Of a stretch of DNA of 64,000 bases, positions 19,116 to 63,691 are shown piece after piece. This DNA is from an uncultured virus (IMG/VR IMGVR_UViG_3300044922_001008) (Duplodnaviria; Heunggongvirae; Uroviricota; Caudoviricetes): IMG/VR virus record IMGVR_UViG_3300044922_001008. The stretch is one strand, 5' to 3'. The number at the start of each line of letters is the position of its first letter. Within the stretch, counting starts at the first letter, position 1. The translations under genes were made by a program, and so were the position numbers. A model generated the notes under the pieces. The model was not told the origin of the DNA. It saw nothing but the letters and a program-made list of their open reading frames with translations, and made no database searches.

Positions 19116-20120
19116 ATGGCAATTGGATTTGATGTTGGAACCTACAATTTGGTTTGCTGCCAAAGAGATGAAAATAAAAATTTTGTAAATCATCGTGAAA
19201 TAAATGCGTTTATTGAACTTCCTTTAGAAAACAGATATGTATTTGACATGATGAAACAAGCTGGTGCGCCTATTATTGAGCGAGACGATGTTGCTTATGT
19301 AATTGGAGAAGCTGCAGTAAATATGGCATATACAATTAGCCAACTTGAGCTTAAACGACCAATGTCTGGTGGATGTGTTAATCCAAAAGAAAAAGATGCT
19401 TTTCAAATTTTGAATATTATGATTCATAGCTTGCTTGATGGTGTAAAACAAGACAATGAAACTTTATATTATTGCGTTCCAGCAAATGCAATTAATGAAG
19501 ATACTGATGCCGATTATCATACTAAGGTTCTTGAGGCTATTTTCAAGGCATACGAATCTGATAAGGGATATAAAGTTAACGCACATCCAATCAACGAAGC
19601 ATTAGCATTGGTTTATGCAGAATTGGGTAAAAAAGCATATACGGGAATTGGCATTTCTTTTGGTGCCGGAATGGTAAACCTTTGTTATTCGATGTATGGA
19701 AATCCATTATTTAAATTTGCCATTGTAAATAGTGGCGATTGGATTGACAGACAAGCTGCAAAGGCTACTGGCGATACTCCTACTTATATCAATAAAGAAA
19801 AAACAAAAGTTGATTTGGGTGCTGTTCCAACAACTATGGTTGAACGAGCAATTCAAACCCAATATAGAATTATGATTGAGCATACAATCGCTGAAATTAA
19901 AAAAGGATTATCAACTTCCAACAAAGCAGTCCATAGTGATACGCCTGTAGATATCGTAATTGCTGGTGGTACATCTTCTCCTCCCGGTTTTGATAAGATG
20001 TTTAGAGATACGATCATGCAAGCCAAATTGCCAATTAAAATTGGTGATGTTATTCGTCCAGAAGACCCACTCTATAGTGTGGCTCGTGGATGTTTAATTG
20101 CTGCAGAAAACGCAAGATAA
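19116..20120 (+). CDS. Actin-fold ATPase (MreB/MamK/FtsA/ParM superfamily)
   Basis: Phosphate-1 IGFDVGTYN, connect-1 INEALA, phosphate-2 GISFGAGMVN, adenosine IVIAGGTS, connect-2 DPLYSVARG. Confidence 0.85.
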   Translation: MAIGFDVGTYNLVCCQRDENKNFVNHREINAFIELPLENRYVFDMMKQAGAPIIERDDVAYVIGEAAVNMAYTISQLELKRPMSGGCVNPKEKDAFQILNIMIHSLLDGVKQDNETLYYCVPANAINEDTDADYHTKVLEAIFKAYESDKGYKVNAHPINEALALVYAELGKKAYTGIGISFGAGMVNLCYSMYGNPLFKFAIVNSGDWIDRQAAKATGDTPTYINKEKTKVDLGAVPTTMVERAIQTQYRIMIEHTIAEIKKGLSTSNKAVHSDTPVDIVIAGGTSSPPGFDKMFRDTIMQAKLPIKIGDVIRPEDPLYSVARGCLIAAENAR

Positions 20121-20667: not shown

Positions 20668-21936
20668 ATGCCAGATTTGAATGCCGAATCAATGAGTAAG
20701 ATAGATCAATCTGTAGATTATTTGGTATCCATTCTCAAAAAACAAATTATTTCTGGTGATGGATTTCAGAAGCGTGGATTGTGGGATAGGTTTAAGAATT
20801 TCGTATCTAATGCTTGGCATGGTCGTTATAACCAAAAAAATCCCTATTATTTCATCAATACTCTTGGTGACTTCGCTGGTTCTTCAAAAAAAGATCCGAC
20901 TGCTTCTGCTCCCAAAGTTGGAGCTTCTGCCCCTAAAGTAGAATCTTTCAATCCACAAACTTTAACTTTACAAGAATACATGGAGATTAAATCTCTATTT
21001 GATAAACTTGAAGAAAATATTAATTCAATCAATGAGGCAGATGGCACTGATAATTTAAGAATTATGCGCTTAATTGATGATTGGTCTAAAACTCTTAAAA
21101 TTACACTTAAAAAGTTATTTTCAAATTTTTCTAAAACTTCTGGATCTCCAGAAGCCGAATCATCTCCAGAAACAGACAATAAGGATGGAGATCAATGTCG
21201 TATTGATTTAGAAAACAAACATAGAGATGGAAAAATAAGTCATAAAGATTATTTTAAAATAAAATCTATGATTAATCGTGGCGAAATAGAAGCTGCATGT
21301 CAAGCTATTGAAGAACTATTGAAAAGTCCAGAACCAGAACCAGAGCCAGAACCAGAAGCAGACCCTTTTTTAGAAAAGAAAATAGCAGATGCATATGAAG
21401 AATTAGAAGAAGCAAAAAAGAAAAAAATGCCAGATGATATTTATGAAAAAATAAAAAAAGATTTAGAAATTTATAGAAGAAATCCAGATGAAAAGCTTTG
21501 GTTAAGTATTAAAGATTCCATTCACGGAACTGGTCCTATCCCTAGTCGTTCTGGCGATGAGTCTGAATCACCAGAAGAAGAAAAATTCCCATTTAACCTT
21601 GACGAAACAATTGCAACTTTCAAAAAAATTAAATCTGCCTTAAGAAAAAAAGAACCATATAAAAAATTATTTTCAAAGTGGAAGAAAAATGCAAGTCCAT
21701 CTTTAAAAGATGAATTTGAAAAATTAGAAGAAAAATTAAACACGGCTCTTATTGATCATATGGAAAAAGAAGAGTTCGAAGATCTATTACACGAATATAA
21801 GATTATTGTAAATGAAATAATTAGTGATGGAGATTCTCCAATTGAATCTACCATTGAATGTGTATCACCTTTATTGCCATTAAATCTTGAACAGAAAAAA
21901 AATTATATAAAAATTTTAATTAATGAGAGATCATAA
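20668..21936 (+). CDS. Hypothetical charged helical protein, possible internal head protein
   Basis: AGGAG RBS before ATG 20668; amphipathic GLWDRFKNFVSNAW helix; PE repeats. Confidence 0.5.
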   Translation: MPDLNAESMSKIDQSVDYLVSILKKQIISGDGFQKRGLWDRFKNFVSNAWHGRYNQKNPYYFINTLGDFAGSSKKDPTASAPKVGASAPKVESFNPQTLTLQEYMEIKSLFDKLEENINSINEADGTDNLRIMRLIDDWSKTLKITLKKLFSNFSKTSGSPEAESSPETDNKDGDQCRIDLENKHRDGKISHKDYFKIKSMINRGEIEAACQAIEELLKSPEPEPEPEPEADPFLEKKIADAYEELEEAKKKKMPDDIYEKIKKDLEIYRRNPDEKLWLSIKDSIHGTGPIPSRSGDESESPEEEKFPFNLDETIATFKKIKSALRKKEPYKKLFSKWKKNASPSLKDEFEKLEEKLNTALIDHMEKEEFEDLLHEYKIIVNEIISDGDSPIESTIECVSPLLPLNLEQKKNYIKILINERS

Positions 21937-22115
21937 TGCCATTTAAAAGTAAATCCCAATGGAAAGCATGCTTTGCTAGCAAAGGATTTGGCGGCAAGGT
22001 TGATTGCGAAAAATGGGCTAAAAAAACCAAAAAATTCAAAAAACTTCCAAATAAGTTAGAGATGAAAAATGAATTTTTTTCAAATTGGTTAAAAAATAAA
22101 GATCCAGAATTTTAA
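21936..22115 (+). CDS. Small basic protein (59 aa, not in ORF track)
   Basis: MPFKSKSQWKACFASKGFGGKVDCEKWAKKTKKFKKLPNK...DPEF; TAATG coupling to the upstream gene. Confidence 0.55.
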   Translation: MPFKSKSQWKACFASKGFGGKVDCEKWAKKTKKFKKLPNKLEMKNEFFSNWLKNKDPEF

Positions 22116-22732
22116 TTGCTTCTGCCAGTTATTTTTTCTGGCAATTTAAATGGTGGCAATTCATAAAATCTAAAAACTTGCTCTTGGCTTAAACTACCAC
22201 TTCCATTTCCCTTACTTTCGCCATGACTCTCTTTTCCTAATGCCTCTGCCTCTCCTGTTCCATTGCCAGATTTTTCTCCAATAATTGTTTTGCCACTCAT
22301 AATCATTTGCATTGCTTTTGCAGCATTTTGATGCAATTCTTCTGAGTAAGATAATCTGTAAGCTCGTGGTTCAACACTATTCTTACGAATTGAAAATGGT
22401 TTCAATAAATAAATAATACTTTTTTCTATAACTTTATTTTCTGTGTCTGCTTCAGTAGCCCAAACAAATATACCACCATCATCTTTTTTATTGAATTTAG
22501 ATGGCTCTTGAACAAGAATCCAATGAATAATTGATTTCTGAGGCATAGCAACGGATGTCGCCCATCCACTTAAATCACTAAGAGAAAACCACATAGCAAA
22601 ACTAAAATACAAACAAAATGTTATAAATAAAGTTTTAAAAGCCCAAAATCCTTTAGAAAATATAATCATCCATAAACCAATAGCACATAATACTAAGAAT
22701 GTTAATGGAATACCAATTGCATTTATGTCCAT
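22112..22732 (-). CDS. Membrane protein (2 N-terminal TM helices), third gene of the MotA/TolQ-like operon
   Basis: Hydrophobic N-terminus, soluble C-terminal domain with PRAYRLSYSEELH. Confidence 0.65.
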   Translation of the reverse strand: MDINAIGIPLTFLVLCAIGLWMIIFSKGFWAFKTLFITFCLYFSFAMWFSLSDLSGWATSVAMPQKSIIHWILVQEPSKFNKKDDGGIFVWATEADTENKVIEKSIIYLLKPFSIRKNSVEPRAYRLSYSEELHQNAAKAMQMIMSGKTIIGEKSGNGTGEAEALGKESHGESKGNGSGSLSQEQVFRFYELPPFKLPEKITGRSN

Positions 22733-22738
22733 AAGACC

Positions 22739-23380
22739 TCAAGGAATTTCTGGTGGGATTATAGGTGTTCTAGCTGGTTCACTTTCTTTTGGCTTTCTAC
22801 CAAGCAATTTCTTTTCAATCTCTGAAATGCCAGCTAATTCGCCTTTTCCATTAATTTTAAAACGAAAAGCTGTTTTTTCATCGCCATTTTTCATTAATGT
22901 TATTTTTCTCTGAATTAAGACACCATATGTTGGACTTACTTTTTCTAATTGAACAATAACTTCTGTTGGCTTTTGATCATTGAAATTATAAGCGTGAACA
23001 TTAACACAATATTCACCAACAGATGTGCCTCTTAGGGTGACTATTTCTTTATTTTCTGAATATACAATTGTGCCAAATTTTGTTTGTACAGTATCATTTC
23101 TGTGACCAAGATCATCACGATCAAGATGCATCAATCCATCTTCTCGTCTTCCAAAACAAACTAAGTTTCCTTCTGGATCTTCTACATAAGCATCAACATC
23201 ATTATCAAGTTCTTTTCCCCAAACAAAAGTTATTAGATATGAAGCTTTAGACTCAGGAGTTTTTTTATTTTGATTTATCAATGCAAATGAAAGAATAAAT
23301 AGGCAAGTAAAAGCTAACAACATGTTGAAAAGCAAATCTAAAAATGAAGTGTTACAAGAATAGTTTTTTCTAAAGTTCAT
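22739..23380 (-). CDS. MotB/TolR/ExbD-like single-TM protein with YfaP/DUF2135-like extracytoplasmic domain
   Basis: SFLDLLFNMLLAF TM helix with the conserved Asp; W...DVDAYVEDP.G, LDRDD.G, GEY.VNVHAY. Confidence 0.65.
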   Translation of the reverse strand: MNFRKNYSCNTSFLDLLFNMLLAFTCLFILSFALINQNKKTPESKASYLITFVWGKELDNDVDAYVEDPEGNLVCFGRREDGLMHLDRDDLGHRNDTVQTKFGTIVYSENKEIVTLRGTSVGEYCVNVHAYNFNDQKPTEVIVQLEKVSPTYGVLIQRKITLMKNGDEKTAFRFKINGKGELAGISEIEKKLLGRKPKESEPARTPIIPPEIP

Positions 23381-23389
23381 TTAACCTCA

Positions 23390-23887
23390 TTAAATATTGT
23401 TTTCTAATTTATCAAGTTCAATAGCAATAAGAAAGAATTGCAATTTTAGAATACTACCACAAACCAAACCAACGATTGTTGTGTATAACGCAGTAGCCAT
23501 ACTTCCGCCCAATTGTGTGAGCAGAGCTTGAACAGATGTGATATTTTGAATGTCTAATGAATTAAAGCCAGAAAGCATCATAATGAAACCAATAATTGTT
23601 CCCATCATTCCCAATGTCAAACAAAGCTCACTTACAAACCATCCTATCTCTGATTTATTTTTATAAATGGCAATATCTTTTGAATTTTTAGAAATTTTAG
23701 AAATTTGATAACACAGGTTTCCTGCATGAAGAGAACAAATTAAGAATATAATATATGTAATATAACTTAAAAAACTTGAATCTTTAATCCAGATTTCTTT
23801 TGCTATACCGCATTGAAATAAAATTATTGATATTACACAAATGAAAGTGAAAATTAAGTGCCATTGTAAGAATAATAGATTTTTCAT
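23390..23887 (-). CDS. MotA/TolQ/ExbB proton-channel family protein
   Basis: ELCLTLGMMGTIIGFI...MATALYTTIVGL signature helices; 4 predicted TM segments. Confidence 0.85.
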   Translation of the reverse strand: MKNLLFLQWHLIFTFICVISIILFQCGIAKEIWIKDSSFLSYITYIIFLICSLHAGNLCYQISKISKNSKDIAIYKNKSEIGWFVSELCLTLGMMGTIIGFIMMLSGFNSLDIQNITSVQALLTQLGGSMATALYTTIVGLVCGSILKLQFFLIAIELDKLENNI

Positions 23888-23901: not shown

Positions 23902-24267
23902 TTATTTTTTGGCTAAATCCGAAAGCTCATCTATATTTATGAATTGCGAATCATTTGTATTCTCGTTTATTTTATTTTCTTTAGATTTAATCATATCGTT
24001 TATAATTTTTTTATGTTCTGGATTTTCTTCATTAAGCACTTGTTCTTCTATAATCCCAACAACATTTTTAAATTGATAGAAATTTTTACAACCAGTCAAT
24101 GTATGTGTTGTGAAAATTCCATCTTCATCTATAGAATCAACAACACCAGTGAAAAAATCTGCGAATTGAGGATCACTAAAATTTGATTTAGCAATTGGCT
24201 CGGTCAATATTGTGCATATTTTACCAATAAAAAGTTCCGTCATTTTTTTCAAAGTGGTTTGTTTCAT
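23902..24267 (-). CDS. Hypothetical protein
   Basis: 121 aa; FTGVVDSIDEDGIF beta pattern, possibly Sm-like. Confidence 0.5.
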   Translation of the reverse strand: MKQTTLKKMTELFIGKICTILTEPIAKSNFSDPQFADFFTGVVDSIDEDGIFTTHTLTGCKNFYQFKNVVGIIEEQVLNEENPEHKKIINDMIKSKENKINENTNDSQFINIDELSDLAKK

Positions 24268-25381: not shown

Positions 25382-26143
25382 ATGAACATTGAACATATTT
25401 CCGTTTCGAGAAAACAATGCTTTGATACTTGCAAAGCACAATACAAATATCGCTATCATTTGAAGATTGTATCAGAAGAACCAACTGCAGACCACTTCAC
25501 TTATGGAAAAATTGTCCATAAAGTTGCAGAAAATTATGTTGAAGAAAAAGGAAAAAGAGAAATTTCAGAAATTGCTTCTGATGTTTTGAATGGAAAAATA
25601 TTTTTAGAAGGAACTACTAAATCTCCTCCATTGCCAGTTCAATATACAGAAAAATTACCTGTTCATTTGAAAAACATTAAAGTTTTAACAGATCGAATTG
25701 GATTTGATGGAGAACTAGAATGGGAATTCAATTATGATCTTGATAATCCAAACAAAAGAATGATTAAAGGATTTATTGATCGATTGATCATTCGTGGAGA
25801 TAAATATTTCATTCTTGATTATAAAACAACAAAAAAAGGTCCATGGAGAAAAACAAAAGGAAATATTGGAAAAGATTTGCAATTACGATGTTATGGAAGA
25901 ATTATTCAAAAGCATTTTGGAGCAAAAGCCGAAAACATTATGGCAGCTTTGTATTATCTCGAAGGACCAAATTTAATTTCGACTGGATTTACTCAAGAAT
26001 CTCTAGATTCTGCAGGAACAGAGCTTTTAAATACCTATAAGGAAATTTATGCCATGAATCCAAACGATGCAATTGGAACAACTGGAAATCATTGTAGATT
26101 TTGTGATTATAAAAATACTTGCCCTTATTTTGACAAGCTCTAA
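25382..26143 (+). CDS. PD-(D/E)XK nuclease (Cas4/RecB/AddB-like, Fe-S staple)
   Basis: N-terminal C..QY.Y, G..VH, GFIDRL, ILDYKT, QL..Y, C-terminal C..C.....C. Confidence 0.85.
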   Translation: MNIEHISVSRKQCFDTCKAQYKYRYHLKIVSEEPTADHFTYGKIVHKVAENYVEEKGKREISEIASDVLNGKIFLEGTTKSPPLPVQYTEKLPVHLKNIKVLTDRIGFDGELEWEFNYDLDNPNKRMIKGFIDRLIIRGDKYFILDYKTTKKGPWRKTKGNIGKDLQLRCYGRIIQKHFGAKAENIMAALYYLEGPNLISTGFTQESLDSAGTELLNTYKEIYAMNPNDAIGTTGNHCRFCDYKNTCPYFDKL

Positions 26144-27018
26144 TTAGGAATCAAAATATAATTTTCATCATATTTTTGATGCCAAATGCTACGATCAATA
26201 ATTTTTATTTTCTTTGCTATATCAGAACCCGGTTTTATTTTTAAAAGAAAATCATAGCCATTTCCAGAATATACCTCATGTATAACACTTAATGGAGTGA
26301 AATATCCTTCTCCAGAACCATCAATATTAGATGTGGCTACACATGTGGCAAGATATAATTTGTCATCCATTAAGCCACCACCACTTCTTCCGGGTCGTGG
26401 ACTATTCTTTATTGTTGTTAGGCTTTTGTTAAATAGACCGACTATTTGAACTTCATAATGTGCAACTTCATCTCCTCCATCGCAACCAATACTATGCATT
26501 ATTTTTCCTTCTTTATATTTATAATCAATTGGTGCGATTGGGAAAAAATTTGGTCTCCAATCAGGTTCAAAAGTTACTAAAGCGGTATCTGCATCTGAGA
26601 TATAAGAATAAAAAATTACTTTAGCATTATATGTCTTCGGTTCTGCCAATTTTATATCATTTTGATACCATGTCAAAATTTTACAAGTTAAATTCTTTTT
26701 TTTGCCTTCTTCAGCCGACATTGTTCCACGATTCCATAAATGTCCACATGTCGCAACATAAGCTATATTTTTTACATTGTCATAGTAGACAATAGTTCCA
26801 GATCCAGATCCTCCAGATACTGCAATTTTTACTGATGGTGCTAACCATTTGCGAAATTCTATGCCCCTTTGTTCGATTGGAGCAGAACCATGGTAATTTA
26901 CTACTGGTTGAAAAATTGGCATTTCTGCCACAGATTTATTTGGTATTTCGCTGGCTTCAGCAAAATTAGAAAATAAAAATACAACCATCATAAAAAGAAA
27001 TGTAATTATTTTTTTCAT
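26140..27018 (-). CDS. Exported trypsin-like serine protease
   Basis: Signal peptide; GSGTIV, ATCGHL (His), DTALV (Asp), GRSGGGL (Ser). Confidence 0.85.
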   Translation of the reverse strand: MKKIITFLFMMVVFLFSNFAEASEIPNKSVAEMPIFQPVVNYHGSAPIEQRGIEFRKWLAPSVKIAVSGGSGSGTIVYYDNVKNIAYVATCGHLWNRGTMSAEEGKKKNLTCKILTWYQNDIKLAEPKTYNAKVIFYSYISDADTALVTFEPDWRPNFFPIAPIDYKYKEGKIMHSIGCDGGDEVAHYEVQIVGLFNKSLTTIKNSPRPGRSGGGLMDDKLYLATCVATSNIDGSGEGYFTPLSVIHEVYSGNGYDFLLKIKPGSDIAKKIKIIDRSIWHQKYDENYILIPN

Positions 27019-31103: not shown

Positions 31104-32189
31104 ATGAAAAAGTTACAAATTATTGTTTTGGCATTGGGATTTATGTGTCTAGTCGCTTATGTATCAAAACAAACAAAATATGACTCAATTGATCGATTAG
31201 AAGTCGAACCAAAAAAACAATTTGATTCTTTGCAAACCGCCTTAGAAAAAATAAATTCTGATTCTGCCAAAAAAACAGTTGAATATTTAGCGTCAGACGA
31301 ATTGGAAGGCAGAATGAGTGGTAAAAAAGGTAATGTATTGGCAGCAGAATTTATCAAAAATAAATTTGATGAATTAGGATATAACACACAATATCAGAAG
31401 TTTAAAATTAGAAGATTAAATTCTGGTCCTAAAAATGAAATTGGCGATGACTTCACACAAAATGTTTGTGCTTGGCGTATCGGCAAAGATGAAAATAGAA
31501 AAAAAGAAATTGTTGTCGTTGGCGCACATATGGATCATATTGGCTATGGACCAAAAATGAGCATGGCTCCAAATAAAATTAAAATTCATCCCGGAGCAGA
31601 TGATAACGCATCGGGAACTGCAGCCCTACTTGAAATCGCCAAAGGCTTTTCAAACATGAATAATAAAAGAACTATTTTATTCATTGCTTTTTCAGCGGAA
31701 GAAATGGGTCTTTTGGGCAGCGAATTCTATGTTGAAAATCCAATCCTTCCTGCAAATGACCCAAATATTAAGAGCCATATATTCATGCTGAATATGGATA
31801 TGGTTGGCTATTTAACTAAGGGAAAGATTAAAACATCTTTTGAAAATCAAGAGAGTTCTATAAACATTACAAAATATATTGGAGAATTAAGTGATAAGTA
31901 TTCATTTGCAAAAAACATAACAACTAGAAGTGGTGGCGGTAGTGATCATGCTGTTTTTTATAACAAAAGAGTGCCTATTGCATTCTTACATACTGGCGGT
32001 CACAACTATTATCATACTCCACTGGATACGCCAGATAAATTGAACTATGATGGTATTGAAAAGATTTCTAAATATGCTTTAGAATTAGTTTGGAAGGTAT
32101 GCGAAGAAGAAAGAACTCCAGTCTTTAACAATAGTGGTTTTAGACCAGTTCCTACAGATCATGACCATGGAATTAAAAAATTTAATTAG
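31104..32189 (+). CDS. M28 family aminopeptidase with N-terminal signal/TM
   Basis: GAHMDH, GADDNASG, AEEMGLLGS, NMDMVG, SDH, YHTPLD. Confidence 0.92.
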   Translation: MKKLQIIVLALGFMCLVAYVSKQTKYDSIDRLEVEPKKQFDSLQTALEKINSDSAKKTVEYLASDELEGRMSGKKGNVLAAEFIKNKFDELGYNTQYQKFKIRRLNSGPKNEIGDDFTQNVCAWRIGKDENRKKEIVVVGAHMDHIGYGPKMSMAPNKIKIHPGADDNASGTAALLEIAKGFSNMNNKRTILFIAFSAEEMGLLGSEFYVENPILPANDPNIKSHIFMLNMDMVGYLTKGKIKTSFENQESSINITKYIGELSDKYSFAKNITTRSGGGSDHAVFYNKRVPIAFLHTGGHNYYHTPLDTPDKLNYDGIEKISKYALELVWKVCEEERTPVFNNSGFRPVPTDHDHGIKKFN

Positions 32190-32198
32190 GAGAAACCT

Positions 32199-32648
32199 AT
32201 GACTATTAATGAACTTATTGTAAATTTGCAAAAAGACCTAAGAAATGAACTTACACATCTGCATTTTTATTTGCAGAGTGCTGCCCTAGTTCAAGGTCTT
32301 CATGCAAAAGAATATAAAGAATATTTTTTAGAAGAAGCAGCTAAAGAAATGAGACATGTATCAGAATTTTCAGATATGTTGATTGGTCTTAATGCAGATA
32401 TTACAAATCAACCAAATTTTGAAAAATTGCCATTTTTGAAAAATGTACGACATATCGTTGAACATGCCTTGACACTTGAGGAAGAAGTAGTGTCAAATTA
32501 TAGCACAAGAATTCACGAAGCTGAATCACTTGGAACGGTCGATGGTGATTGGGTTCATATTTTCTTAGAAAAGCAAATAGAAGATAGCCGACATGATGTC
32601 GATGAACTGAAGCAAATTGTTAGAGGTTTAAAGGAAGGATATCCATGA
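32199..32648 (+). CDS. Ferritin-like (bacterioferritin/Dps-type) protein
   Basis: NE...Y, EE..KEMRH, LEEEV...Y, ED..H four-helix di-iron pattern. Confidence 0.8.
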   Translation: MTINELIVNLQKDLRNELTHLHFYLQSAALVQGLHAKEYKEYFLEEAAKEMRHVSEFSDMLIGLNADITNQPNFEKLPFLKNVRHIVEHALTLEEEVVSNYSTRIHEAESLGTVDGDWVHIFLEKQIEDSRHDVDELKQIVRGLKEGYP

Positions 32649-39299: not shown

Positions 39300-40013
39300 A
39301 TGCAATCTAAAAAAGCAAGTTTTTTCCTGATTTCTGTCTGTACAATACTTTCATTTTCATTGTGTTTTCTGGTTGTAGCTAAAGCACCGAACTTACAAAG
39401 CGTTGCTCAAGTTTCACACGAGAAAATTACTAATCCAGTAGCCAATTTCGAAGGCTATGAAGATGATGATGTTTCAAATGTAATGGTTCCAATTCCTATG
39501 AAGGATAGAGTCTATAATAAGACTGGAATTCAATGTGTTTGGGCATCACTTGAATGTATTGGAAGATATGCTGAAGAAAAAAAACTTATCAACCTAACGA
39601 ATGATTCCGAATGTCAAGGTTATAGCAGCCCAAGTGGATCAGCAAGAAAGCTTATGGCTTTAAATGTCAAATTTGAACAGACTACAAGTTTGTCTGATAA
39701 AAGTTTGATCCGTAAGGCTGTAGTGAAAGAAAAGCGTGGTGTATTATTTGGTATTCCCGGTCATGCTATGGTCATGGTTCACTATGATGAAGCAAAAGGA
39801 ATTATCAAATATATAAACAATAGCGATAAAGAATTGAAAATAAGAACTTGGACAATCGATGAATTTAACCGCAGATGGGATGGTTGGATTTGTGCAGTTT
39901 ATGCCGATGTGGATCACATTCCAAATAAATGGTTGGCATCAACAATTAAAGTTATTGATATGGAAAATTTAAATTTTCTGGCTCCAAAGAATTATATTCT
40001 TTTTCCAAAATGA
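39300..40013 (+). CDS. Exported papain-fold (C39-like) cysteine peptidase
   Basis: N-terminal TM; QCVWAS (Cys), GHAMVMV (His), YINNSD. Confidence 0.7.
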   Translation: MQSKKASFFLISVCTILSFSLCFLVVAKAPNLQSVAQVSHEKITNPVANFEGYEDDDVSNVMVPIPMKDRVYNKTGIQCVWASLECIGRYAEEKKLINLTNDSECQGYSSPSGSARKLMALNVKFEQTTSLSDKSLIRKAVVKEKRGVLFGIPGHAMVMVHYDEAKGIIKYINNSDKELKIRTWTIDEFNRRWDGWICAVYADVDHIPNKWLASTIKVIDMENLNFLAPKNYILFPK

Positions 40014-61529: not shown

Positions 61530-62867
61530 CTAAGGACTTGGCGGAACCATAGTTTTGATAATTTTAGATAAATTTTGAATTCTACTTAGAGCATTCGGAT
61601 TTTCCATAACCATCTGAAACTCTTTAGTTTTCATAATTTTTTCTTGAATGTCTTTAGGTAATTTTCTGATTGATCCAACCACACTAAGTTTTCCTTTAGT
61701 TGTTTTTTCTGGATAATTTTTCAAAAACTCTTCTGGTGTTGGTTTCGCTGTTGGTTCTGGTGGTGGCGTTTCTTCCGCTTCTGCTGGTGGTGCTTCTCCT
61801 GCTGGTTTAGATCCAGATTCTGCTGGTGCTTTAGATGTGGCTACATTTCTTAAATTTGCATTCAGATCTGCAATTTGTTTTGAAAGTTCTTTATAATTTG
61901 CAGCATCAAGTTTACCAGAAAAATCAGTTAGATGTTTTATAGCATCTTCAATTGATTTTATATCATATTGATCGTATTTTTCATCTCTACTGCCTTTGTA
62001 GCCTTTTGTGAAAGCATCCCAAACACTTCCTTCTCCGCCACCCATAAAGCGATCAAAGCCTCCAGCCAAACCACCTTTTAATCCAGCCCATGCTCCGCCA
62101 AGCCAATTTGCCTCATCTAGAACATATTCGTTAGCAATCCATTGTGCGAACAATTTTGAATTAAAGCCTCTTCCTTCTACAAGAAAACAAAGATTTTTAA
62201 TCCTAGTTTCCATTAATTTTATATCTATGGGATTAATTTTTCCATGATGAGAAGATTCATAATTAAACTGGTCTGGACTTGATGCTCTATCGGTGGCAGC
62301 ACCAGCAGCACGAGCTTTAGAAGCAGCGTCAACAGTTGGTGGTCCGCCAGCCATTGGCTTCATTGGCTTTGCACCAGCTTGTGGTGGTATTGGTGGTGGT
62401 TGAGTTGCCACTGGTGTATTTTTCAAGGTTTTTAATATGCCGTACAATGAGTCTTGAATATCTTTTTGAGCAAGTCGAGAATTTTGCCTATTACTTTTCT
62501 TTATAAGGTCATTTATTTTTTCTACTGCTTGATTGCTTGCCACAACCAAAGGGTCTTGATTAGATCCAGATCCTGCCATCATTTTATTGCCAGCATTTTG
62601 CATAAAATTGCCAACAGCACCTTGAACTTTATTTGCAGCACCTTGCATAAAATTGCCAACATTTTGAAAAAATCCTTGTTCATTAACCTTAAGTTCGGTA
62701 ACGACCCATTTTTCGGCTTTATCTGCTATATGATCGGTTTCTGAATGAATATCGAGCCATTCAACAAATGATTCTGGACTAATACCTCTGATGATCATTT
62801 CTCGAAAACATTCTAATGCCAATTTTTCAGTTTTTTTTAATTCCAAAGATTCTTTAAAGCTGATCAT
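61530..62867 (-). CDS. Putative internal head/ejection protein with internal duplication
   Basis: MISFKESLE N-terminus; two CF...RG.....F..W units, each followed by NE/DE and a Gly-rich amphipathic helix. Confidence 0.5.
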   Translation of the reverse strand: MISFKESLELKKTEKLALECFREMIIRGISPESFVEWLDIHSETDHIADKAEKWVVTELKVNEQGFFQNVGNFMQGAANKVQGAVGNFMQNAGNKMMAGSGSNQDPLVVASNQAVEKINDLIKKSNRQNSRLAQKDIQDSLYGILKTLKNTPVATQPPPIPPQAGAKPMKPMAGGPPTVDAASKARAAGAATDRASSPDQFNYESSHHGKINPIDIKLMETRIKNLCFLVEGRGFNSKLFAQWIANEYVLDEANWLGGAWAGLKGGLAGGFDRFMGGGEGSVWDAFTKGYKGSRDEKYDQYDIKSIEDAIKHLTDFSGKLDAANYKELSKQIADLNANLRNVATSKAPAESGSKPAGEAPPAEAEETPPPEPTAKPTPEEFLKNYPEKTTKGKLSVVGSIRKLPKDIQEKIMKTKEFQMVMENPNALSRIQNLSKIIKTMVPPSP

Positions 62868-63691
62868 TTTCTTGTGCCTTTCACTTCAAAATCCCTCATC
62901 CATATCTGATAAATAAGTGTTTGAGGTTGTTTTTTATTTTCCTTATATATGAATGACAAAGCCCCTTCTGATTCATCATCCCAAGTTTTTATCCAATAAA
63001 TTGGAGAAAAATAAGCTTGGTTATTTAAAAACAAAGAATCAGAGCCACGAATGGAACTTGTAACTCCAATAACTTTATATCCATCCTTATAAAATAAAGG
63101 TCCGCCAGAATCTCCGAATATTGTATAACAATTCGATCTTAGAAATCCTTTAAGATTTTCTGGCTTTTTTGTATCGACAGATGTTATTGCTCCGAAATCA
63201 ATGCGTATATCATCTCCAAGACCATATCCTATTTTAAATACATCTGTTCCAAAATATGGCTTAGAATTAAAGTCCATATCTGCACAAGGCATTTTTTTAT
63301 CTGATTTAAATATCAAAATTGCCAAATCCATTTTCTTATTGATGTTGTAGATTAATGCCTGATATGTATCAAATTTCGTAAGGTTTGACCAATTGTCATA
63401 AACTCCGCAATGAACATCGATAGCCGATGCTACATTTTCGACATTATGTGCAGCTGTGACTATAACATTTAGGTATTTTTTATCAATAAGTTGAGATTGA
63501 ATTAATTCTGATTTGACGATAAATCCACTGGCTACTGCTTGTGGTGGTTTTTTCTTACAATCATCGCAATCGCAATTGTTTTTACTATAACTTATCTTTA
63601 TTGTAGGATATAAACTTTTCTCATGTAGTTTTTTATCTGGTTCTACACTAAATAACCATAAGGGAAATATCAAAAATATTAGATGTTTCAT
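62864..63691 (-). CDS. Exported trypsin-like serine protease
   Basis: Signal peptide; ASGFIV, VTAAHNV, DLAIL, GDSGGPLF. Confidence 0.88.
   Translation of the reverse strand: MKHLIFLIFPLWLFSVEPDKKLHEKSLYPTIKISYSKNNCDCDDCKKKPPQAVASGFIVKSELIQSQLIDKKYLNVIVTAAHNVENVASAIDVHCGVYDNWSNLTKFDTYQALIYNINKKMDLAILIFKSDKKMPCADMDFNSKPYFGTDVFKIGYGLGDDIRIDFGAITSVDTKKPENLKGFLRSNCYTIFGDSGGPLFYKDGYKVIGVTSSIRGSDSLFLNNQAYFSPIYWIKTWDDESEGALSFIYKENKKQPQTLIYQIWMRDFEVKGTRK

Follow-up and report, generated by a model that had tools for sequence, protein, structure and literature searches.

Three adjacent membrane genes of an uncultured virus, here called A, B and C, apparently encode a real and hitherto undescribed variant of the 5:2-type ion motors, which is common to phages and bacteria. 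The genes are located in a 64 kb stretch of DNA (the window), which is the first part of the 131,882 bp virus record IMGVR_UViG_3300044922_001008; this record is estimated to be 27% complete, and its source is probably a jumbo tailed phage, because T4-like terminase and primase genes were found by library scans of the window proteins. The original prediction, made from the letters of the window, had pointed to three co-oriented, closely spaced membrane genes and to an ion-driven motor with an unusual third partner. The three genes were confirmed as exact open reading frames (ORFs) on the minus strand with gaps of only 9 bp (A-B) and 6 bp (B-C), and we consider it likely that their products form a stand-alone motor of the 5:2 type in the inner membrane of the host. 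The literature searched, which comprised neither subscription journals nor the supplements to PMC12204202 and PMC12505986 (the latter with 379 A homologues), contained no description of the trio.

The channel subunit is encoded by gene A, whose assignment to the MotA/TolQ/ExbB family was borne out. The protein matches PF01618 (MotA_ExbB) with 34.4 bits at a cut-off of 22.9 (E 2e-8), and a profile of 128 A-family sequences returned MotA, PomA and TolQ chains from the PDB (E 3e-4 to 9e-4). Four hydrophobic helices (residues about 10-25, 40-55, 85-105 and 130-150) were assigned using the family-mean hydropathy and the distribution of lysine and arginine; this count stems from hydropathy peaks of the family and not from a fold of A as a single chain. 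With four instead of three helices and a basic loop between helices 2 and 3, the topology is MotA-like. The loop (residues 56-83) has a median length of 28 residues in 143 viral rows of the alignment versus 63 residues in 121 cellular rows and, because of this short length, the viral loop is too small for the torque interface of a flagellar stator. The longest viral A has 249 amino acids (aa), and A of the window has neither a torque domain nor a cytoplasmic tail.

For the comparison of pore residues, TolQ, ExbB, TolR, ExbD and MotB of E. coli were taken from the K-12 record, and conservation was counted in 318 non-redundant trios, including that of the window, which were obtained from 467 fetched and partly overlapping locus records. 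According to the accessible text of PMC12215075, the pore of ExbBD contains the threonines T148 and T181 and kink prolines, while the accessible text of PMC11946911 reports the equivalent Thr/Ser residues and the Asp of ZorAB to be essential. Both threonines are found in A: T97 aligns with TolQ T145 and ExbB T148 and is a Thr in 277 of the 318 trios (Lys in 38), and T137 aligns with TolQ T178 and ExbB T181 and is a Thr in all 318. Also, E87 aligns with the Asp that precedes the first Thr by ten residues in MotA and PomA, with Asp or Glu present in 250/318, and D36 and Q150 are near-invariant and specific for the family.

The product of gene B had been described as a single-pass protein with a conserved Asp in the motif FLDLLFN, and this description held. 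In an AlphaFold2 model (predicted local distance difference test, pLDDT, 80.6), one helix (residues 9-36) is joined by a short coil to an all-beta domain, and the motif is placed at the start of this single predicted helix. The protein begins with a basic N-terminus and has a linker of about 10 residues without plug helix, an outer beta-sandwich and a Pro-rich tail; the spacing between N36 and W54 is 18-24 residues in all 143 viral rows. D15 aligns with ExbD D25, TolR D23 and MotB D32, with each of these alignments being non-significant by itself. This position is Asp in 309/318 trios, including 143/143 viral ones, and Val in nine cellular copies.

For the outer domain of B, likeness to YfaP/DUF2135 instead of an OmpA or ExbD domain had been proposed. 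The first part of this claim was upheld by structure and hardly by profiles. When the model was compared by VIA-align, the top three rows were TerD-family chains with Z scores of 9.2 (3ibz), 8.2 (2qng) and 7.7 (2qz7) and a root-mean-square deviation (rmsd) of 4.0-5.0 Å over 130-142 aligned residues; another TerD structure, 2kxt, whose entry title says calcium-binding, scored 7.0. DUF2135 was the commonest weak Pfam match of the family (22/140 B members, best E 0.0035) but gave no match to B of the window, and a protein atlas provided a lead from B to DUF2135 at 0.83. The DUF2135 likeness is therefore better supported by fold than by profile, since TerD-family structures top the structural matches. 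The acidic residues D61, D63, D89, D90 and E112 are kept in 318/318 trios, with D89 and D90 being partly contained in the search patterns. Because one of the TerD matches is titled calcium-binding and these acids are invariant, the acidic cluster is a predicted Ca2+ site. The second part of the claim was upheld by the all-beta model and by profiles: among 140 B proteins, no OmpA or ExbD profile was seen in the 25 of 39 families displayed, the B profile covered only the membrane helix of E. coli ExbD, and its match to TolR was negligible past the helix. A sequence search of the PDB with the B profile returned nothing significant, Foldseek against the PDB gave no match for B or C at E<=0.001, and the protein atlas named no Pfam family for either of them.

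The third protein, C, was correctly predicted to have two transmembrane helices. Its AlphaFold2 model (pLDDT 79.7) contains membrane helices 3-25 and 30-54, which are directly followed, without a long linker, by a compact beta-rich outer domain (residues 61-195). The element order of this domain (beta-beta-beta-alpha-beta-beta with a Gly-rich insert) fits an OB-fold. A wide structural search was filled by the helical hairpin, and the domain was assessed from the rows covering residues 61-195. The best match was the C-domain of eIF5A with a middling score (Z 6.7, rmsd 3.7, 74 aligned residues), and further matches comprised SSB, PriB and KREPA, with many OB-type rows at Z 4.5-6. We take eIF5A, SSB, PriB and KREPA to belong to the OB-fold class, and judging from the model the outer domain of C is a probable OB-fold. 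Weak matches to DUF4131 occurred in 29/131 C members. The helices of C have no conserved His and no SHLS motif, through which TonB and TolA dock according to the accessible text of PMC12204202, and an SxxxH pattern was present in just 11/318 trios. A profile search with C yielded 2,413 clusters at 50% identity; one protein of 374 aa (P0121) carries two C units in tandem.

The original prediction was staked on joint conservation of the three genes and of the Asp, and in phages both were found: besides the Asp of all 143 viral trios, 80 of 80 viral loci chosen by A alone also contained B, C and the Asp. The order A-B-C was present in 161 of the first 164 loci, with the three misses located at contig ends, and A, B and C occurred together in 443 of the 467 records. 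Among the last 189 records, 20 were incomplete, most of them at a contig edge, and six had about 1.5 kb downstream sequence without a C match. For B, 705 relatives were obtained among 784 candidates. Cultured carriers comprise 29 records of Rhizobium and Sinorhizobium phages (59-171 kb), and the trio occurs in temperate as well as lytic phages. Four cultured phage genomes were examined, including the temperate phage 16-3, and all had A-B-C; cultured phages gave no tblastn match to A or C, and A and C of the Rhizobium phages were recognised by profile. In 16-3 (L004:3292-5153, p038-p042; L numbers denote locus records), the trio genes are separated by p039 and p041, two small genes unrelated to them, and a trypsin-like protease gene is located upstream. 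Distant trios of the 16-3 type were seen at L285:4711-6702 and L250:4303-6147; one of them is surrounded by short genes of prophage-like appearance, and the other is located on a megaplasmid of Azospirillum. The trio genes are under purifying selection, with dN/dS (ratio of non-synonymous to synonymous substitution rates) values of 0.05-0.25 in 9/15 gene pairs; the six pairs with L013 were saturated.

A phage-specific device for exclusion or defence is not supported by the distribution, as many bacteria, too, carry the trio as an operon on their chromosome. In the GTDB, at least 558 of 600 trio stretches taken were confirmed. In an evenly drawn sample of Pseudomonadota, the trio was present in 17/401 genomes (centre included), and within the class of genome G341 in 41/301 genomes. 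Five bacterial carriers were checked, and because all of them hold other, canonical PF01618 genes, the trio is an extra system in bacteria. A tree of 185 concatenated trios required 5 virus/cell label changes versus 59.5 in shuffles; this tree was quick and unrooted (LG+G4), with long-branch warnings and a sample biased to best hits. The window copy falls into a group of 60 viral rows and one cellular row, and a recent capture of the window trio from a host was rejected because of this nesting.

The window proteins carry the canonical set of pore residues, and natural variants exist in other copies. Lys replaces T97 in 38 cellular or metagenomic copies, mainly from Burkholderiales, and is usually accompanied by Gly instead of E87. 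In nine cellular copies of one clade (L275-L283), Val replaces D15 and Lys replaces N19, with an Asp four residues earlier. Clades changing one pore charge alter others too. An invariant Asp as a rule for the entire family was rejected, since it was a product of motif-based searches and was broken by the unbiased sample. Members of the L275-L283 clade (e.g. B at L279:5595-6281) are often found beside a LuxR-type two-component pair.

Co-variation between the subunits was analyzed by mean-field direct coupling analysis (DCA) of the 318 trios with three settings (effective number of sequences 136-246), which recovered plausible intra-chain strand pairs. Of the 20 top-ranking A-B pairs, 6, 7 and 3 linked residues 82-153 of A with the helix of B, versus 1.4 expected (p 0.002, 0.0003 and 0.16), and such pairs were also enriched in the top 50 A-B pairs (p 0.002, 0.0005 and 0.02); examples are L105-N19, L123-A23, V119-L30 and G127-A33. 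No enrichment was obtained for the outer helices of A (residues 7-60) with the B helix. A relative-swap control was not relied on, as it strips phylogenetic and direct signal alike. The DCA lends weak support to a position of the B helix inside the A ring. Conserved pore threonines, the Asp and this weak helix co-variation agree with the proposed ion-motor-type pair that has a fixed third partner.

By homology, a ring of five A subunits would enclose two B helices, and the ions passing via Asp15 and the two threonines would be protons or possibly Na+, with the A ring turning against the B pair. The output of such a motor would be confined to a few nanometres from the outer face of the inner membrane; contact with a flagellar rotor or with the outer membrane should be out of its range, because A is devoid of a torque domain and a tail, B of a plug, a long linker and an OmpA domain, and C of an arm across the periplasm. 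The acidic TerD-like domain of B on the periplasmic face of A may bind Ca2+ as a gate or sensor replacing the plug, and C may be anchored beside the ring with its OB-like domain and C-terminus serving as a brace or as an arm holding cargo. Most speculatively, the phage would make the motor in the replication phase, as the trio follows the primase gene on the same strand, and the motor would drive or position local remodelling of the cell wall or periplasm. In the phage loci examined, the trio is located in replication or host-takeover regions, outside the head, tail and lysis cassettes.

With regard to purpose, we favour, at slightly less than an even chance, a phage motor that manages the envelope or wall of the infected host cell. 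Among the purposes suggested originally, envelope remodelling is the only one with a direct hint, namely an in-frame fusion of C to a lysozyme of phage type in five viral loci, whose carriers are 61-66% identical to L073; the three fusions scanned matched PF00959 with E 5e-47 to 6e-50. The internal Shine-Dalgarno sequence in these fusions may provide both tethered and free enzyme. A weak search for long fused forms of B or C found none, with the C-lysozyme fusions of about 300 aa falling below its length range. In L074, a free lysozyme gene is found two genes downstream of the trio, and single cellular copies have an L,D-transpeptidase (L108) or an OmpA protein (L098) nearby; together with the fusions, these neighbours hint at an output on the envelope side. 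A more far-reaching version appears doubtful to us: a rotary-motor family distinct from Mot, Ton, Tol and Zorya, long kept by phages, with a Ca2+-binding TerD gate and an OB-fold output arm, which draws on the proton gradient of the host and remodels the wall (with an attached lysozyme in one clade) or excludes other phages.

Several observations weigh against a motor with this purpose. The columns of the kink prolines (ExbB P141/P190, TolQ P138/P187) are occupied by L90 and I146 in A, with Pro in at most 9/318 trios, and at the column of ExbB E176 and TolQ E173 A has T132, thus no acidic counterpart. The canonical Asp is not universal, as the V15 clade accounts for 9/17 loci in the unbiased sample. 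Several of the top inter-chain DCA pairs are topologically impossible and represent noise, the choice of residue windows followed an initial inspection of the data, and neither A-C nor B-C pairs were stably enriched, so that the binding place of C has no consistent signal. The commonest functional neighbours point elsewhere, namely to Clp in phages and to PQQ (pyrroloquinoline quinone) in bacteria. The C-lysozyme fusion is restricted to one clade (3/142 non-redundant viral trios), it may reflect a lost stop codon between neighbours, given the internal ribosome-binding site, and no match to the fusion lysozyme was found in the genome fragment that contains the window.

Superinfection exclusion or inter-phage defence, which had also been suggested, would mean that B and C sense a disturbance of the envelope and thereby trigger an ion leak, or that incoming DNA is blocked at the inner membrane; we regard this as unlikely. 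The best PADLOC matches of A are ZorA models (E 3e-8), but these models of 413-683 positions match A over the shared pore helices only, with 23 bits versus a cut-off of 500. A has no ZorA-like tail and B no OmpA domain, and no ZorC, ZorD or ZorE was present among the window neighbours or the scanned neighbour representatives, with PADLOC covering four window proteins. OB-folds often bind nucleic acid, and the weak DUF4131 matches of C would also suit this explanation, as would the long-standing viral clades of the tree and the presence in both temperate and lytic phages. The ter operon, the home of TerD, is linked to phage inhibition in the accessible part of PMC8123226. Against this stand the bacterial copies, which occupy clade-stable neighbourhoods of mostly metabolic genes, such as those for PQQ, sufB, otsA (trehalose) or amino-acid ATP-binding cassette (ABC) transporters, with one weak defence-gene match 3.5 kb off among the neighbours scanned. 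Moreover, the trio of 16-3 (22.6-24.5 kb) lies between immX (18.3-18.7 kb) and attP, away from the C repressor region (35.6-36.5 kb) and thus outside the annotated immunity genes. Of the purposes first suggested, exclusion and defence are therefore not specifically supported.

Less likely still is an accessory for metal handling, in which the motor powers Ca2+ or lanthanide loading, release or sensing on the periplasmic side for quinoproteins and the phage copy acts as a host-support gene. PQQ-system genes are found within 4 kb of the trio in 39/80 best-hit cellular loci from several lineages, but in just 3/17 unbiased loci (blast and scan of 60/132 unlabelled neighbours). In many Burkholderiales loci, the trio lies directly 3' of a PedC-type ABC permease gene on the same strand, and a PedC-type transporter supports rare-earth-dependent growth of P. 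putida according to the available text of PMC6839425. The TerD-like acidic site of B would also be suitable for such a role. However, none of 84 phage loci contained a member of the PQQ gene clusters, and a DUF3108-like fourth gene, which follows C in 46/121 cellular trios, occurs in 0/143 viral trios, many of which have short flanks. In some Burkholderiales (e.g. L131:3245-3946), the trio with T97K/E87G is co-oriented with PQQ ABC transporter genes, followed by the DUF3108-like gene and tctC.

A stress or proteostasis module, in which the motor keeps the membrane energised or feeds envelope proteins to proteolysis alongside phage Clp parts, is hardly probable. A ClpP, ClpS or McsA-like gene adjoins the trio (at most 700 bp away, same strand) in 26/142 non-redundant viral versus 1/121 cellular loci, and the arrangements vary: ClpS downstream in 13, ClpP on either side in 8 and McsA-like upstream in 5, with the McsA-like gene directly upstream of A in the sister phages L019-L022 and L027. 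An Hsp20 gene after C in L057 points in the same direction, as do the trypsin-like proteases in the vicinity of the trio in phages 16-3 and RHph_N3_13 and also in the window. Yet this count comes without a background rate for arbitrary phage genes and is inflated by related phages, Clp proteins are cytoplasmic whereas the soluble domains of the trio face outward, and neither ClpP nor ClpS turned up in the window's genome fragment, whose McsA-like gene (71969-72400 of the source record, outside the window) is about 48 kb away from the trio. Equally improbable is a static scaffold or simple gated channel of motor origin in which nothing rotates, for although both kink prolines and the acid of ExbB E176 are lost, plug and identifiable load are missing, and nine cellular copies lack the canonical Asp and 38 have Lys for Thr97, none of the copies deviates from Thr137, all viral copies retain Asp15, an acid occupies the cytoplasm-side Asp position of PomA in 250/318, and the joint change of pore charges within clades suggests a maintained ion path.

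The features of the trio in the window are compiled in Table 1. Each of the three genes has a Shine-Dalgarno-like sequence at its start, and the trio agrees with the remaining genome in GC content (31%) and in GC content at third codon positions. Scans for promoters and terminators at the trio were no better than chance. On the minus strand, the gene order is primase, a 121-aa gene, A, B and C, with a spacing of 6-14 bp between the last four. The 121-aa gene (23902-24267) was rejected as a fourth member of the module, since its occurrence is limited to the phage clade of the window. At positions 22112-22115, C and a convergent 59-aa ORF on the plus strand (21936-22115) overlap by their stop codons.

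Table 1. Coordinates of the trio, its key residues and related loci (positions refer to the window unless a locus record is given)
Feature	Position	Strand	Size	Description
Gene A	23390-23887	minus	165 aa	MotA/TolQ/ExbB-family channel subunit
Gene B	22739-23380	minus	213 aa	single-pass partner
Gene C	22112-22732	minus	206 aa	third partner
A Thr97	23597..23599	minus		pore threonine, equivalent of TolQ T145 / ExbB T148
A Thr137	23477..23479	minus		pore threonine, equivalent of TolQ T178 / ExbB T181
B Asp15	23336..23338	minus		predicted ion-carrying membrane aspartate
B residues 44-195	22796..23251	minus		TerD/DUF2135-like beta-sandwich, predicted Ca2+ site
C-lysozyme fusions	L073:2768-3661, L081:4684-5544, L082:2645-3553, L083:2454-3356, L084:2382-3278			internal AAGGAG ahead of lysozyme Met
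Clp-adjacent examples	L087:5158-5460, L184:3638-3949, L074:5199-5834, L021:3153-3500			

The neighbours of the trio in the window comprise primase, exonuclease, protease, volactin and terminase genes. The actin-family gene at 19116-20120 (Pfam Volactin, E 3e-74) is kept near the trio within this phage clade. A trypsin-like peptidase with a signal-peptide-like start was detected at 26140-27018 by library scan, and the ORFs 31104-32189, 39300-40013 and 62864-63691 have signal-peptide-like starts and the appearance of exported proteases only. A 149-aa ORF at 32199-32648 presumably belongs to the ferritin/bacterioferritin family, judging by a motif.

To our knowledge, every 5:2 motor characterised so far is of cellular origin and works on a load that can be recognised, i.e. 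a flagellar rotor, a TonB/TolA arm or an effector tail. The trio is near the minimum size of a motor and has no known load, no description of its two partner domains in such motors was found, and it is kept intact in very different phages and in a few percent of the Pseudomonadota sampled. Should it turn, phages would be shown to equip the host membrane with a proton-driven machine of their own, and the trio would be a compact model for gating without plug or kink prolines. The natural pore-charge variants (Thr97Lys; Asp15Val with Asn19Lys) are ready-made tests of the ion path. The trio is also directly testable, since it is carried by the classical phage 16-3 (p038, p040 and p042) and by cultured bacteria, for example Sphaerotilus and Ideonella among the Burkholderiales.

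In comparison with known systems, the trio shares with Ton/Tol the gene succession, in which a PF01618 gene precedes the gene of a single-pass partner with the Asp and a further membrane gene comes third, as well as a small cytoplasmic domain and both pore threonines (equivalents of T148/T181 and T145/T178). Unlike in Ton/Tol, A is a four-helix protein without P141/P190 and E176, a TerD-like sandwich takes the place of the periplasmic domain of ExbD/TolR, and C combines two helices and a compact OB-like domain without SHLS, periplasm-spanning linker or TonB-C domain. MotAB and PomAB resemble the trio in the four-helix A, the GxxGT and ALxTT motifs, the cytoplasm-side acid ten residues ahead of the first Thr and the best PDB sequence matches. 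Flagellar stators are defined by an expanded torque interface, a plug and an OmpA-type wall anchor, as stated in the accessible text of PMC12505986; the trio has no torque-generating cytoplasmic domain, plug or such anchor, and it differs from MotAB and PomAB also by its obligatory third gene and the lack of flagellar neighbours. ZorAB is similar with respect to the best PADLOC matches of A, a plug-less B with its outer domain near the membrane and a non-flagellar nature with a phage connection, whereas the trio has no long cytoplasmic tail on A, no peptidoglycan-binding OmpA domain on B and no ZorC/D/E, and its genes reside in phages themselves and, in bacteria, away from defence neighbourhoods.

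Also related are TolQ-like motors with vWA partners containing a transpore helix, for which the accessible text of PMC12204202 describes an orphan TolQ-like ring and an Asp partner with a non-standard outer domain, as in the trio. As far as described there, those are heterologous gene pairs with vWA domains, whereas the trio, which many phages possess, combines a TerD-like sandwich with a constant third protein of two helices. TerD and YfaP/DUF2135 share with the outer domain of B the fold and a cluster of invariant acids; in contrast to them, B is anchored in the membrane via a motor helix, the identity is as low as 10-18%, and B of the window is below Pfam significance. The La-repressed MotA/TolQ/ExbB pair differs by description alone, consisting of two channel genes according to the accessible part of PMC6277846. 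Judged by its sequences, the trio lacks defining features of MotAB, Ton/Tol and ZorAB and yet fits a 5:2 motor in its channel subunit, membrane Asp and pore threonines.

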